From a virus: 64,000 nucleotides of DNA. Position 1 is the stretch's first letter. Every line of letters starts with the position of its first letter. The notes beneath the pieces were generated by a model. The model was not told where the DNA came from. It worked only from the letters and a program-made list of their open reading frames with translations, and made no database searches. The stretch lies in the IMG/VR virus record IMGVR_UViG_3300034107_000725, positions 64,001 to 128,000 of that record; one strand, 5' to 3'. The position numbers and the translations under genes were made by a program. This document shows positions 5,637 through 10,063 of the stretch, piece after piece.

Positions 5637-6407
5637 ATGGCATGGTACAACCAGGAAAAACCTGACACGATGAATTTTGTCGTAGCAGGTAATTACCACT
5701 CAGGTTATGGTTTGCTCCAGGCGGCATTGTCCGCTCACCCTAGCGTTGTTTGTCACGGGGACGTACTGCACACGGAAGATAAGATTCGGCAAATCGAGCA
5801 TGAGAGCTATTTTGGCGATTCAGGTAGAGTGCCGGATTGGTACGTCCCAACACATTTGAGTGCAGAGCAGTATCTAAACAACAAGATCTTTGACAACACC
5901 TTGCACCAAGAGCGAGCAGTCGGCGTAAAGATCAACTACTGCAACTTCGTCCAGCACGATTTGTGGGACTATGTTGATCAGAAGTGTCGTCAGGGTGACT
6001 TCTATCTTGTACACGTCGTGAGAAATCCCATCGCTTGTTACGTAGCCTGGAAGCAAGCTCAAGGTAACAATGGATTGTTAGGTCCTGCGGTTCGCAGTCA
6101 TACAGTGTTTGTGGAGCCTCAAGAGCTAACCCAGTTTGTGCGGGAGCACGAAGCAGTGAAGCTCAAGATTGATCGGTTGTGTTCCTCGCGTGCAGTGATA
6201 CTTTATCACGAGATGCTTTTGGACTTTCGGGGCACGCTGGAGAAGTTGCTTCCTTGGATGGAGCTACCGTTTAGCTCTGCTTGTGTCATTAACCAGGCTC
6301 GGGTAAAACGACGAGACATTCGTAGTCGGGTTTCCAACTGGTCGCAGCTCAAGACTGCACTACCTCGGGACGTATTGGCATACCTCGAAGACCCTACGCT
6401 TTTTTGA
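5637..6407 (+). CDS. Stf0-like sulfotransferase (divergent)
   Basis: FVVAGNYHSGYGLLQAALSAHPSVVCHGDVL, VHVVRNPIACYVAW and ILYHEML follow the Stf0/sulfotransferase layout. Confidence 0.65.
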   Translation: MAWYNQEKPDTMNFVVAGNYHSGYGLLQAALSAHPSVVCHGDVLHTEDKIRQIEHESYFGDSGRVPDWYVPTHLSAEQYLNNKIFDNTLHQERAVGVKINYCNFVQHDLWDYVDQKCRQGDFYLVHVVRNPIACYVAWKQAQGNNGLLGPAVRSHTVFVEPQELTQFVREHEAVKLKIDRLCSSRAVILYHEMLLDFRGTLEKLLPWMELPFSSACVINQARVKRRDIRSRVSNWSQLKTALPRDVLAYLEDPTLF

Positions 6408-6421
6408 TCCTCAAGGACACT

Positions 6422-6643
6422 ATGACAAAGCCAAAGAAGGAAAATCCACCGTTGACGGATCGCGAGTGGCAAGTTGTACGACTGATTCAACAGAATAAGA
6501 AGTACAGAGAGATTGCAACAGAATTGGGATTGGGCTACGAGACTGTGAAGACTTATGCCACGCGTATTCGTCGCAAGCTCAATCTGACGTCTAAAGTGGC
6601 GGTTGCGTTGTGGGCACAAGAGAAAGGAAAGTCTGATGGATAA
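6422..6643 (+). CDS. Solo LuxR/GerE-type HTH regulator
   Basis: LTDREWQVVRLI...YREIATELGLGYETVKTYATRIRRKLN; no receiver or ligand domain. Confidence 0.9.
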   Translation: MTKPKKENPPLTDREWQVVRLIQQNKKYREIATELGLGYETVKTYATRIRRKLNLTSKVAVALWAQEKGKSDG

Positions 6644-7205
6644 ACTGAAGCAGTTGGCGACCATCGGCGGCAAGCAACAGTGGTCACAGTACCAAGAAGC
6701 GGTAAGAAAAGAGCTGTTAGCGGGACGACACGACAATTCGATTGCGATAGAATTCCCGGAAGAGCCTATCCGTTATCCTTGTCTGGTGGCATCCAAGGCA
6801 AACGAAATTGACATCACACAGCCGGGATCCTTTGCCCGCATAGTTGTGTCTTGTTGCTACGTTTATCCAGAAGATGCCAGGCATCTGCTAGAAGTTGCAA
6901 GCCGCTCAAATCCAAACTGGAATCCTATGGTCACAACGAAAGTTGAGACATTTCTTGATCTACCTCGTGAACTGGCTGGCGTCGTTGATTACGACGATGA
7001 CGACTACAGTCCAACCGAGCTGGGCACTCTCACATTAGCTCTATTGCTGGAGTTAAAAGACATTGGAGCCTTGAAGCTGGATAAGTTGACACAGCGGATG
7101 GCTAAGGTAGACGATTGGCTGGTCAAACAGACGGCGGAAGAGCTTGAGTACGCACAAACGATTGAGATTGTAGAAAAGATTTGGGGAGACTCGGATGTTA
7201 GCTAA
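6636..7205 (+). CDS. Hypothetical protein
   Basis: Long ORF translationally coupled to both neighbours. Confidence 0.7.
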   Translation: MDKLKQLATIGGKQQWSQYQEAVRKELLAGRHDNSIAIEFPEEPIRYPCLVASKANEIDITQPGSFARIVVSCCYVYPEDARHLLEVASRSNPNWNPMVTTKVETFLDLPRELAGVVDYDDDDYSPTELGTLTLALLLELKDIGALKLDKLTQRMAKVDDWLVKQTAEELEYAQTIEIVEKIWGDSDVS

Positions 7206-7824
7206 TCTGTTTGATCCGAAGTGGTGGTACATGGAGATTCCACGTACCGGATCGTCAACGCTAGATCGTGCTTTGTTTCAAGTGCTGCCAGGAGCAGTCA
7301 GCTTGTATCAAAAGCACTGGCCGATACTACCAACACCGTTTCTTGATCCTAACGCTCCGGATGTGACAGGGATTGTTTCGATTCGCAATCCCTACAGCCG
7401 GGCGGTTAGCTGTTGGCAGTTCTTTACAAAACCCGGGTCAATATCCTTCCGTGACTGGACGCGAGAGCGGCTAATTCAAGGTTTTGTAAACTTGCAGATT
7501 GAAGCTCGACCACAGAGCTTCTGGTTCAACCTTCACAAGTGGGAAGCGGTTATCCGACAGGACCACCTGGAAGACGATTTCTGGGCCGCGGTGCATTCGA
7601 TGTACCCGGACATACCTCGTAAAGACATCACAAGGTATAACGACATCAACGGCGACTGGAATAACCGGGCGGGTTTTAAAACATCCAGACCGAACCCGTG
7701 GCACACCTACTACTGCGAAGAATCTCTAAACAACGTAGCGGTTATCTACGACACAGATTTTGAATGTCTGGAGCAGTGGTACTCACGAGATTTTTCTGAG
7801 GCAATTTCTGGAAGTAAAAGCTAG
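7195..7824 (+). CDS. Sulfotransferase (Sulfotransfer_2-like)
   Basis: YMEIPRTGSSTL (intact PSB loop) and SIRNPYSRAVSCW (3'-PB motif). Confidence 0.8.
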   Translation: MLANLFDPKWWYMEIPRTGSSTLDRALFQVLPGAVSLYQKHWPILPTPFLDPNAPDVTGIVSIRNPYSRAVSCWQFFTKPGSISFRDWTRERLIQGFVNLQIEARPQSFWFNLHKWEAVIRQDHLEDDFWAAVHSMYPDIPRKDITRYNDINGDWNNRAGFKTSRPNPWHTYYCEESLNNVAVIYDTDFECLEQWYSRDFSEAISGSKS

Positions 7825-7894
7825 ACAATCCAAATTGCCCGTGATAAACTTTCCTTCGTTGGTCATTAGGGAATCTTGTGAAACTGCCAACATC

Positions 7895-7935
7895 GAACCC
7901 CGTTGGACTGCAATTCCTTCGGGGTTTCTTCTTGT
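7895..7935 (+). terminator. Hairpin with a U-rich tail, possible terminator of the 4794-7824 operon
   Basis: GAACCCCG(7895-7902)/CGGGGTTT(7920-7927) stem followed by CTTCTTGT. Confidence 0.4.
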
Positions 7936-7970
7936 CTACTCAAATTCCCTGTTCAATTTTTTAATAAGTA

Positions 7971-7999
7971 TTCGCTATCATAGGTAGCTGCGATATAAT
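7971..7999 (+). promoter_or_regulatory. Sigma70-like promoter
   Basis: TTCGCT-17 bp-TATAAT with an AT-rich UP-like region upstream; predicted start ~8006 coincides with the 5' end of a closing RNA stem. Confidence 0.6.
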
Positions 8000-8005
8000 C
8001 CCGAT

Positions 8006-8202
8006 TGGTGACTTTGCCGCAGGTGTCGGCAGGTTAGGGGACTCGACGCAGCCAGGATAGCAGCGACACGGGTTAGGACGACTGCCTAAGTGAAAAACCA
8101 GCAGTTGGAGGTATTTCAGTCGCACCTTTTAGACTGGAAACAGCGAAGAGTCTTGCAACCCTTCGCACTGGACTTGAGGTAGGGGATCTCAAGGGGTCAC
8201 CA
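8006..8202 (+). ncRNA. Unidentified ~195-nt multi-stem structured RNA (trans ncRNA or 5' leader)
   Basis: Closing stem 8006-8014/8194-8202; hairpins at 8015-8031, 8073-8089, 8114-8139, 8143-8166, 8173-8193; loops AGGTGT and GCACCT are complementary; no credible ORF. Confidence 0.55.
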
Positions 8203-8239
8203 TTTTCCATCACTACTTCTCTCAGGGACGTCGAGAAGC

Positions 8240-8731
8240 ATGTCACAAGACCACCGTAATCAGCTCGATAAAGTCAAAGAACGAATTCAAAACCTACAGA
8301 CTGGATCTGCCCGAGTTCTCGGGCAAGACTCTGGGATCTGGGGAAGACAAGAAGAAATCATTGAACTACTGTCGACCGTGGCAGAAAATCTAAGTGATGT
8401 GTCGGAGATCAGAGGCCAAGAGCATATTCAGATCATCCAGCAAGTAGCTACGATCGAATCTAACATCGACCACATCAAACGCGATGTAGGACTTCTTTGC
8501 AAGTTGGTGAGAGACGGCAACGGACAGCCTTCGATCATTCAACGATTGGCGAACCTGGAAACAGTTGTACACAATCAAACACGTGACATCGAGCAAATCG
8601 GTCAGCATGCCAATTCGATCATGGCAGCTCGTATGCTTACCAAGTCGCAAATCATCACAGGCTTAACTGGCATGGTGATTACCGCTCTGCTTTCGTCATT
8701 AGCCCTGTTCGCGACTTTGCTGAAACCGTAG
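8240..8731 (+). CDS. Coiled-coil protein with a C-terminal transmembrane helix
   Basis: Heptad-rich body; hydrophobic C-terminus IITGLTGMVITALLSSLALFATLL. Confidence 0.7.
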   Translation: MSQDHRNQLDKVKERIQNLQTGSARVLGQDSGIWGRQEEIIELLSTVAENLSDVSEIRGQEHIQIIQQVATIESNIDHIKRDVGLLCKLVRDGNGQPSIIQRLANLETVVHNQTRDIEQIGQHANSIMAARMLTKSQIITGLTGMVITALLSSLALFATLLKP

Positions 8732-8739
8732 GAGTTGCT

Positions 8740-9306
8740 ATGAGCCTGATCTCTGTCACTGATCTTCCAGACTATCGGCATCTTCTTTTATACGAAGTTG
8801 TCAAAGACACGGAGAAGCGAGCTGAAGTCAAGATGACAGGCTTGTTGCAGGCAACCGGAGGTTACCTGCTTGTTGGCGTTCCTACCGCTCTGGTTCGTGG
8901 TATCTTCGATGCCATGCATGAGCCGGGCATCTCTCTACCCAACGCAGTAGACGAAGAAGCCCTAAGGGCCGGTATCGTAGTGATGACCCCGGAAGAACTG
9001 AGTCAGATTGGTGGCCCGACCAAAGTCAGTGAGCGGGGTAAACACTTCACGTACCATCTCGGTAAGCTGGTCGAAGCTCCGGCTCGTGGTTGGCCTGGTG
9101 TGTCCACTTGTTGGCACTTACAAATAAAATCGCCCGAGCTAAACAAGCTCAGGCGAAGTTACGGGCTACCGTCTAAGTTGGAAGACGGCTCTGATTTTTC
9201 GATTGTGGTGGCCTGTCGTAAAATTGGCGTGTTGACCGCCAATTCTGTACGCAAAGTCACAGAGCAGCAGGCAGATCATCGTCTTCCTGATTGGACTCTA
9301 CCTTAA
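8740..9306 (+). CDS. 2H phosphoesterase-fold protein lacking both catalytic His
   Basis: YLLVGVP...RAGIVVM...WHLQIKSPELNKLRRSYGL...FSIVVA matches the 2H layout; the HxS/T motifs read GIV and SIV. Confidence 0.5.
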   Translation: MSLISVTDLPDYRHLLLYEVVKDTEKRAEVKMTGLLQATGGYLLVGVPTALVRGIFDAMHEPGISLPNAVDEEALRAGIVVMTPEELSQIGGPTKVSERGKHFTYHLGKLVEAPARGWPGVSTCWHLQIKSPELNKLRRSYGLPSKLEDGSDFSIVVACRKIGVLTANSVRKVTEQQADHRLPDWTLP

Positions 9307-9475
9307 GCAGCTGCTCAAGGGCTATCGCTTCCGCGACTTCCCTTCGATGCACAGGGATTTCAATCGGGGCTGTAATCCCCAATCGTACCTTGTCACCGCG
9401 GATGTCGACGATGGTCAAAACGATATCCGAACCGATGATGATTTCTTCGCCAACTCTTCGACAGAGAACGAGCAT
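9257..9475 (-). CDS. csrA: Carbon storage regulator CsrA/RsmA (RNA-binding translational regulator)
   Basis: MLVLCRRVGEEIIIGSDIVLTIVDIRGDKVRLGITAPIEIPVHRREV; SD GAAGGAG upstream on the - strand. Confidence 0.95.
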   Translation of the reverse strand: MLVLCRRVGEEIIIGSDIVLTIVDIRGDKVRLGITAPIEIPVHRREVAEAIALEQLLKVESNQEDDDLPAAL

Positions 9476-9556
9476 TCAAGACTCTCCTTCCGTGAAACTG
9501 AAAATGCTACCCAACGATTACACTAGCTTCTTTCTGGGGACAGGTCAATAACTCAC

Positions 9557-10063
9557 ATGAGCACACACGCACTGGAACAACGACTGATTCTCACTCCAAC
9601 CTCACAGAACGGGCATGCGGCACTGCATGATCTTTTTTTAAAATCTGCACAGTCTCGAATGGGTTGGTACATAGCAGGTTCTGAAATCGAGGGACAAGGT
9701 ATTTTTGCAGCTAAAGATTTTAAAACTGGGGATACCATCGGACTTGCGATGACACCTGACGGCGAAGATGAGTATGGTTCTAAAAAGTGGAATTTAACAG
9801 AGTTTGCCAGGTTCTGTAACCATCAGTGGAAATCTAACACAGAACTAAAGAAGCGGGACGGTCAATTTTATCTGGTGGCACTTAAGCCAATCGAAACTGA
9901 TGACGAGATCATCTCAAACTATGCCCAGGTTACTCGGGCTGTCGGCCCACACAGTCGCATGTTATGGGACGGTAAAGACATACCAACAAGTGACTTGCAG
10001 GATTATCTAGAAAAAGACGCAGAACTGTCTTCGAATTTGTTAGAATTCTATCCGCTTCCCTGA
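9557..10063 (+). CDS. SET-domain lysine methyltransferase
   Basis: SEIEGQGIFAAKDF (GxG motif), RFCNH, LKPIETDDEIISNY. Confidence 0.85.
   Translation: MSTHALEQRLILTPTSQNGHAALHDLFLKSAQSRMGWYIAGSEIEGQGIFAAKDFKTGDTIGLAMTPDGEDEYGSKKWNLTEFARFCNHQWKSNTELKKRDGQFYLVALKPIETDDEIISNYAQVTRAVGPHSRMLWDGKDIPTSDLQDYLEKDAELSSNLLEFYPLP

Follow-up and report, generated by a model that had tools for sequence, protein, structure and literature searches.

The stretch of DNA analyzed here (the window, 64,000 nt) comprises bases 64,001–128,000 of a 193,990-bp IMG/VR virus record (IMGVR_UViG_3300034107_000725) that is estimated to be 94% complete. An intergenic stretch at 7825–8239 separates an open reading frame (ORF) for a sulfotransferase-like protein (7195–7824) from the ORF of a 163-residue protein (ORF 8240), and a csrA gene lies about 1 kb further on. 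A first reading, made from the sequence alone, had proposed that the intergenic stretch encodes a promoter-driven structured noncoding RNA (ncRNA) of about 195 nt with complementary hairpin loops, and had pointed to csrA as a neighbor. Comparison of homologous sequences confirms that the RNA is real and that it has seven helices and a loop–loop pseudoknot. The features of the locus are collected in Table 1.

Table 1. The RNA and its gene block in the window (paired: alignment cells with standard pairs; double-changed: pairs altered on both sides among homologs)
Feature	Position	Strand	Remarks
LuxR-type helix-turn-helix (HTH) gene	6404–6643		gene block
200-residue protein gene	6603–7205		gene block
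Promoter	7971–7999	+	−35-like TTCGCT 7971–7976, 17-nt spacer, −10 TATAAT 7994–7999
RNA domain closed by P1	8007–8201	+	P1 8007–8014/8194–8201, in the window also T8006–A8202; 97.7% paired; 7/8 pairs double-changed
P2 hairpin	8015–8019/8027–8031	+	loop L2 8020–8026; 100% paired; 5/5 pairs double-changed
Pseudoknot strand 1 (L2, AGGUGU)	8021–8026	+	pairs with 8122–8127
J2/3	8032–8040	+	consensus GGUUAGGAG, window GGUUAGGGG; GGA at 8039–8041; nearly invariant
P3 three-part hairpin	8041–8073	+	8041–8045/8069–8073 (83% paired); 8047–8049/8063–8065 (67%); 8051–8052/8060–8061 (96%); every pair double-changed
J3/4	8074–8078	+	UAGGA; consensus R-GGA; GGC in deep-sea clade
P4 hairpin	8079–8107	+	8079–8085/8101–8107; 88.6% paired; 6/7 pairs double-changed
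J4/5	8108–8113	+	part of invariant GG-N-GGA; window UUGGAGGU
P5 hairpin	8114–8139	+	8114–8120/8133–8139; 91.5% paired; 8/8 pairs double-changed
Pseudoknot strand 2 (L5, GCACCU)	8122–8127	+	within P5 loop
P6 hairpin, variable length	8143–8166	+	92.3% paired; 7/7 pairs double-changed
P7 hairpin	8173–8193	+	8173–8178/8188–8193; 98.4% paired; 5/6 pairs double-changed
Linker hairpin CUUCUC/GAGAAG	8216–8238	+	anti-Shine-Dalgarno and Shine-Dalgarno-like arm; ends 1 nt before ATG
ORF 8240, 163 residues	8240–8731	+	coiled coil, C-terminal transmembrane helix, tail-anchored
2H-phosphoesterase-like gene	8740–9306	+	8 nt after ORF 8240; Pfam 2H-SAK E 1.1e-4, below cut-off
csrA	9257–9475	−	Pfam CsrA E 1.2e-20; convergent with the 2H-like gene, overlaps its 3′ end by 50 nt
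SET-domain gene	9557–10063		gene block

The downstream protein was used as the search anchor for homologs because DNA searches of GenBank phages came back empty. This protein has 54 relatives in a large protein collection, which align around an invariant VRDGNGQ core (consensus LCKLVRDGNGQPS). With the resulting protein alignment as query, 123 loci were fetched from IMG/VR and metagenome contigs. When window positions 8000–8240 were searched against these with nhmmer, the full-length element was found in about 70 of the 123, always on the plus strand, even at loci whose protein is only 35–45% identical. A covariance model built from 47 sequences matches about 85 loci, representing 64 distinct sequences with a GC content of 45–73%, and again every match is on the plus strand. 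The model matches the window at 8002–8204 with 190.7 bits, and finds a single copy of the element in its own genome.

The consensus fold is a junction of six hairpins (P2–P7) closed by P1, with a pseudoknot between loops L2 and L5. In the alignment of 64 sequences, standard pairs occupy 92.5% of cells, compared to 70.0% in shuffles, and 54 of the 57 pairs change on both sides. For covariation the alignment scores 0.751 and the shuffles 0.316, with none of 500 shuffles reaching the observed value, and sliding the partners by 1–3 columns as a control reduced it from 0.75 to 0.11–0.15. An alignment made by MAFFT only gave the same picture. Covariation among homologs was among the tests that the sequence-only reading had named, and its strength rules out an artefact or a chance structure. 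The closing stem it had described, TGGTGACTT (8006–8014) with GGGTCACCA (8194–8202), forms in the window through seven Watson–Crick and two G-U pairs, whereas an extension of P1 outward beyond 8007/8201 was rejected on the homolog alignment. Two of the hairpins it had placed, at 8015–8031 and 8114–8139, are P2 and P5 and are supported by the 64 distinct homologs. U-G and G-U pairs are frequent (e.g., 33 U-G at one P1 pair), which restricts the structure to the plus strand. Taken alone, the window's sequence is weak evidence; the z-score of its minimum free energy (MFE) is −2.1 on the plus strand and −2.5 on the minus strand, and the MFE fold is wrong in its interior relative to the consensus. 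A protein-coding reading of the element was also rejected: its variation is compensatory base pairing, and its only ORFs are short and unconserved.

The pseudoknot was left out of the covariance model and so serves as an independent check on the fold. The complementarity between AGGTGT (8021–8026) and GCACCT (8122–8127), seen in the single sequence, is real: 98.2% of the pseudoknot cells are paired, all six pairs covary, and they rank among the pairs with the highest mutual information. The homologs contain 28 distinct complementary L2/L5 combinations, among them AGGUAC/GUACCU, AAACAC/GUGUUU, GGACGU/ACGUCC, GAGCGC/GCGCUC and UGUCAC/GUGACA, and all six pairs are kept in 57 of 64 sequences. Two alternative pairings had been offered as possible signs of switching. 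GTGTCG/CGACAC is not conserved, being paired in 35% of cases, which is chance level, and CGACTG/CAGTCG is weak, at 73% against 65% in shuffles; switching through either is unsupported.

A search of the whole window with the covariance models of Rfam 15 matched no family at the gathering threshold. When E values up to 10 were allowed on 7800–8400, only a chance match to a long noncoding RNA was obtained (E 9.1). ARAGORN found 0 tRNA or tmRNA genes in the window, and no description of the RNA was found in the literature. The main text of a 2023 catalogue of structured-RNA candidates from IMG/VR (motifs of 29–151 nt) makes no mention of CsrA, GGA, jumbo, kissing or membrane protein; a fragment of the RNA could be among the unnamed candidates in its supplementary tables, which were outside the search. 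The proposal of a novel phage ncRNA is thus upheld by these searches, the strong covariation and the restriction to one uncultured phage clade. We class it as a new RNA family that belongs to a known general kind, that of structured regulatory leaders or CsrA-linked RNAs, and whose architecture is unusual. To our knowledge, few RNAs from bacteria or phages combine a size of about 200 nt and a complex fold with a proven tertiary contact, and each new class of this sort has so far been a riboswitch, a ribozyme or a ribonucleoprotein scaffold.

The junction strands are almost invariant (GGUUAGGAG in J2/3, R-GGA in J3/4, GG-N-GGA in J4/5 and GG in J6/7). The G positions of J4/5 are invariant in the 47-sequence alignment and variants occur in the larger set. 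The P3 apical loop, CAGGAUA, holds a GGA that is present in 63 of the 64 sequences (locus L126 lacks it), with a shifting position within the loop. The P4 apical region has a conserved G-GAAAA loop, and the P6 loop has the consensus CUUAGCRG (UCUUGCAA in the window). In P7, the loop G-N-AGGGGAU is nearly invariant; within the 47-sequence alignment its AGGGGAU does not vary, the csrA-less loci L007 and L077 retain it, and changes are confined to L011, L057 and L009. GGA is conserved at J2/3, L3, J3/4, J4/5 and L7 in most of the 64 sequences. The J2/3 copy is missing from L007/L077, from L009 and from three csrA-positive loci (L011, L057 and L076). In a deep-water clade (L116, L114, L098, L097, L099, L102 and L106), J3/4 reads AGGC instead of AGGA, and P4 has an additional short stem at its end, GGCGAAAAGGCC or GGUGAAAAGACC, with GAAAAG as the cap.

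The TATAAT motif is present at 7994–7999, as the sequence-only reading had it. Among the homologs, 50 of the 64 sequences have a promoter of the form TCGAC/TTGAT-N15-20-TAnnnT whose end lies 5–7 nt ahead of the first P1 pair, compared to 0.6 in shuffles; a generic promoter scan did not list the window site. The fixed distance of the promoter, together with the failure of P1 to extend outward, indicates that the 5′ end of the RNA coincides with the transcription start or lies only a few bases from it. TCGAC-N-TAnnnT was rejected as a general phage promoter, since the window, with 10 copies against 14 expected, shows no enrichment of it. By eye, AACCCCG (7896–7902) pairs with CGGGGTT (7920–7926) and is followed by TCTTCTT; this hairpin (7896–7935) looks terminator-like, follows the upstream gene and would insulate the promoter of the RNA. 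Its 17-nt loop kept it off the list of the scan tool.

At the other end of the element, the next ORF starts within 0–50 nt in 52 of 56 loci. Two of the remaining four are probable ORF-calling artefacts at high-GC loci, and in one case the distance is 142 nt. The first ORF encodes the tail-anchored protein in most loci; at L103, L105, L110/L115 and L124/L125 a different ORF comes first, still close, and the tail-anchored gene is found further on. No terminator was seen between the RNA and the ORF, either by a tool scan of window positions 8202–8240 or by eye at the other loci. The shared strand, the ORF 0–50 nt downstream and the lack of a terminator constitute the anatomy of a 5′ leader. Of the functions that the sequence-only reading had listed, a riboswitch-like leader of ORF 8240 is accordingly the best-fitting, the more so because a hairpin that pairs the Shine-Dalgarno (SD) sequence with an anti-SD strand is conserved in the linker.

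The arms of this SD:anti-SD hairpin covary (CUUCUC/GAGAAG, CUCUUA/UAAGAG, UUCUCC/GGGAA and CUCUUC/GAAGAG). Its loop in the window, UCAGGGACGUC, contains GGA at 8226–8228; with the seven GGA within the element this makes eight, as first counted. Most csrA-positive loci have CA-N-GGA-Y(G) downstream of the RNA (e.g., CAAGGAUG, CAUGGAUG, CACGGAUG and CAGGGACG), usually in the loop of the SD:anti-SD hairpin or overlapping the ATG. The motif resembles the CsrA consensus RUACARGGAUGU obtained by in vitro selection (SELEX), in which GGA lies in a hairpin loop (PMC7652899), and it matches that consensus beyond the needs of an SD sequence. It is absent from the csrA-less loci L007/L077 and from L009. 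The leader of the deep-water clade has three consecutive CsrA-like sites (CAUGGAUG, UAGGAGG and CCAGGAUGG), the last of them over the start codon.

About 1 kb downstream of the RNA, nearly every locus has csrA; in 73 of those fetched, the gene is placed and oriented alike. Locus L007 belongs to a complete relative of 204,794 bp with terminal repeats (IMGVR_UViG_3300008448_000001, G001), in which no CsrA was found; an unrelated 117-residue ORF (L007:3581–3934) occupies the csrA position. The RNA of this genome has GAGG at J2/3, UGG at J3/4 and GGUGGU at J4/5, thus no GGA at any of these and no linker motif. No helix has been lost, the pseudoknot and the L7 loop are retained, and GAAAA is missing from the P4 loop. 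The loss is similar in a second record without csrA, which is 82% complete.

Studies of CsrA provide precedents for how these features might work. One CsrA dimer can bridge two sites separated by 10–63 nt, repression of glgC works through a site in a loop together with the SD sequence, RsmA stabilizes an SD:anti-SD hairpin in psl, and CsrA acts inside the molybdenum cofactor (Moco) aptamer of the moaA leader, which has two CsrA sites (PMC7652899). From the motifs described above, CsrA control of the ribosome-binding site appears likely, and CsrA binding to the folded domain appears plausible. The reading that we favor, at about even confidence, is a riboswitch-like, cis-acting structured leader of the operon of the tail-anchored and 2H-like genes, combined with control by CsrA. 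Transcription starts at the conserved promoter, and the first ~195 nt fold and are locked by the six-pair L2–L5 kissing interaction. The transcript would run on through the linker into the tail-anchored ORF and then the 2H-like gene, and the leader would control translation of this operon. CsrA, encoded either by the phage gene 1 kb downstream or by the host, would bind the linker GGA and the SD sequence, stabilize the SD:anti-SD hairpin and so block initiation, in a manner resembling the glgC and psl leaders. This hairpin, GGA loop included, would be the output module, and additional CsrA dimers could be tethered through bridging to the GGA of the folded domain (L3, J2/3, J3/4, J4/5 and perhaps L7). 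The fold is kept where csrA and most GGA have been lost, which argues for a second, CsrA-independent role of the folded domain; this would most likely be binding of a ligand or factor, as for the Moco aptamer in the moaA leader.

The closest likeness is to the Escherichia coli moaA leader, which also combines a complex, aptamer-like 5′ leader with CsrA GGA sites and has SD accessibility as its output (PMC7652899); the phage RNA differs in having seven helices and the L2–L5 kissing pseudoknot and in not matching the Moco motif. The glgC and psl leaders share a GGA located in a hairpin loop a short way upstream of the SD and a second site at the SD sequence itself, and, as in psl, the SD:anti-SD hairpin could be stabilized by protein, with sites spaced within the 10–63 nt bridging range (PMC7652899). 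Neither has a conserved tertiary domain of ~195 nt upstream, and the CsrA sites of the phage RNA are predicted from sequence.

Several observations weigh against the leader under CsrA control. GGA is not significantly enriched in the element (7 against 5.0 expected, P 0.21). At J3/4 and J6/7 the GG doublet is better conserved than GGA, which suggests tertiary structure rather than CsrA binding. The correlation between csrA and GGA comes from two or three lineages and is imperfect: only three of six GGA sites are present in L011, which has csrA, five of six are present in L126, whose locus contains no csrA, and L124/L125 have csrA and no linker motif. The synteny of csrA may reflect a conserved gene block only. 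Alignment tests found no conserved pairing that is mutually exclusive between the fold and the SD hairpin, so no switch mechanism is shown. A U-rich run often follows P1 and keeps a discrete 3′ end possible, and the product may be a discrete, processed or terminated RNA of ~200 nt. Finally, the seven-helix pseudoknotted fold is far more elaborate than that of any CsrA-bound leader known to us.

Such a discrete RNA would suit a different function, that of a CsrA sponge acting in trans as an analogue of CsrB or RsmZ. It would be made stable by processing of the leader or termination after P1, and its five or six GGA, held on a rigid scaffold, would titrate phage or host CsrA and time CsrA-controlled translation during infection. 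The sequence-only reading had listed a CsrA-titrating small RNA (sRNA) among its options, and the association with CsrA stands: GGA occurs at fixed loop or single-strand positions (J2/3, L3, J3/4, J4/5 and L7), the linker has a consensus site, csrA is 1 kb away in the 73 loci, and GGA decays in the complete genome that lacks csrA. A compact P1-closed fold at the 5′ end of the transcript would resist nucleases, and the U-rich run that often follows P1 also suits this function. As in CsrB, CsrC, RsmX, RsmY and RsmZ, several GGA lie in loops or single-stranded linkers and there is a link to a csrA-family gene. A free-standing CsrB-like sponge fits less well, because the phage RNA has no terminator of its own and has a fixed tertiary fold. 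No U-tract terminator hairpin directly follows the element, and with an ORF 0–50 nt downstream it is not a free-standing gene like those sponges. None of their Rfam models matched it. It is also unlike them in that its junction is closed, its pseudoknot covaries, positions outside the GGA are invariant, and the fold persists without csrA. We know of no Csr sRNA with a covarying pseudoknot or invariant non-GGA nucleotides. On balance, a sponge is an unlikely function for this RNA, although the most probable of the rivals to the favored leader.

CsrA-type sites are not confined to the linker. CA-N-GGA-Y-G occurs at or over the starts of other ORFs of the phage (e.g., at 16272, 17100 and 41891), including the ORF that precedes the RNA polymerase genes and an ORF of 3030 residues. 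These further sites at gene starts are in keeping with a sponge. Enrichment of the consensus motif across the window is only modest (25 against 16 expected). In the leader of csrA itself (window 9484–9494, minus strand), CACGGAAGGAG lies just before the ATG (9475); judged by its sequence, this is a CsrA-type site overlapping the csrA SD sequence, as in autoregulated csrA genes.

The architecture of the folded domain raises another explanation, in which the RNA is purely a small-molecule riboswitch. GGA would then be part of the binding core or tertiary structure, a ligand in the junction would decide the state of the SD:anti-SD hairpin, and csrA would be an unrelated neighbor. The aptamers of the purine, lysine and cobalamin riboswitches have P1-closed junctions, kissing-loop contacts and conserved junction nucleotides, and lie in 5′ untranslated regions (UTRs). 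The phage RNA is not homologous to these and is like them in all four respects: its multi-helix junction has invariant nucleotides and is surrounded by variable peripheral helices (P3 and P6), it has a loop–loop tertiary contact and a GAAAA loop, and it is located in a 5′ UTR with an SD-sequestering hairpin. The RNA is also better conserved than the gene that follows it, its fold is retained without csrA, and GG, not GGA, is invariant at two junctions. Against this, no alternative pairing joins the aptamer to an expression platform, there is no Rfam match to any described class, and the linker matches the CsrA consensus more closely than an SD sequence requires and vanishes with csrA. No ligand candidate has emerged, since a tail-anchored coiled coil and an inactive 2H-like protein give no metabolic clue. 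We consider a riboswitch of this pure kind quite improbable.

A more novel reading is a phage-only, dual-input riboregulator, in which a rigid, pseudoknotted aptamer of seven helices that senses a signal doubles as a multi-site docking platform for the phage CsrA. We regard this as rather unlikely. If it were true, a single RNA would integrate CsrA levels with a signal (a small molecule or a state) and so set when the membrane protein and the 2H-like protein are translated. The signal could be a host stress or immune nucleotide, as suggested by the Acb1-like fold of the neighboring 2H protein. In a variant, L2 and L5 would pair between molecules and the RNA would form a homo-oligomeric scaffold.

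Pairing between molecules would also underlie one form of a last explanation, that the element is some other stable ncRNA. It might be the RNA partner of one of the adjacent proteins (2H-like or tail-anchored), act as a ribozyme, or form oligomers held together by L2–L5 contacts, as in phi29 packaging RNA (pRNA) or some large RNA-only assemblies. Covariation is blind to whether L2 and L5 pair within or between molecules, and even where csrA is missing the module keeps its invariant core, made up of the RNA, the tail-anchored ORF and the 2H-like gene. In L126, a distant relative, a 2H-SAK domain is fused to a LigD 3′-phosphoesterase, and both process nucleic-acid ends. In most homologs, however, the 2H-like protein lacks both catalytic histidines, and there is no sign of cleavage or assembly and no Rfam match to a pRNA or ribozyme. 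The phi29 pRNA, which is not an mRNA leader, uses its loops to join one molecule to another on the packaging motor of a phage of ~20 kb. The present RNA is likewise a phage RNA with two mutually complementary loops; its setting is not phi29-like, as it lies at 72 kb of a 194-kb genome and in the leader position before a membrane-protein ORF. The context therefore does not support the pRNA-like oligomerization that had been suggested at first, and we consider this group of functions the least probable of those discussed.

No family could be assigned to ORF 8240, for which only coiled-coil noise and weak XhlA-like leads were obtained. The 2H-like gene is probably co-transcribed with it, because only 8 nt separate them. 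Its product has GIVV and SIVV where 2H enzymes have HxT/S, so that both catalytic histidines are replaced. Both are missing in most of 45 homologs, and the high-GC L009 keeps them (AHIVV and FHVVV). In L126 (L126:2740–5253), 2H-SAK scores above the Pfam cut-off in an 837-residue frame, with a SET domain as well as the LigD 3′-phosphoesterase. The gene order in the window (6404–10063) and in loci L002–L127 is LuxR-type HTH, 200-residue protein, RNA, tail-anchored ORF, 2H-like gene, csrA on the opposite strand and SET-domain gene. The sulfotransferase-like gene is an insertion specific to close relatives of the window and is absent from L002.

The contigs that carry the RNA come from freshwater, marine (including TARA) and deep-water or deep-sea metagenome assemblies. 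It is widespread in these environments and confined to an uncultured lineage of large aquatic phages of roughly 160–215 kb. The GenBank phage collection contained no match by DNA or by 2H protein, and an exact DNA pattern search of IMG/VR returned one relative that was already known. The link to a phage csrA offers a testable case of a virus that carries a global translational regulator together with a structured RNA dedicated to it as target or antagonist. Annotation of the family and its submission to Rfam are made possible by the alignment and covariance model.

The sole match among 185,579 species genomes is L127 (JBDNHI010000047.1, 79 kb), a contig binned in a metagenome-assembled genome of the Gemmataceae (Planctomycetota). 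L127 carries the block of RNA, ORF, 2H and csrA, and for this reason is probably a phage contig; its binning is a hint as to the host. No copy of the RNA was found in 150 other genomes of the order to which the Gemmataceae contig belongs. L009 is classed as a provirus by IMG/VR. The exact protein encoded at 8240–8731 is present on 37 contigs and in 82 blocks of a public collection, and near-identical loci occur in JGI, ENA and Logan assemblies, which indicates that the phage is common in the sampled waters.

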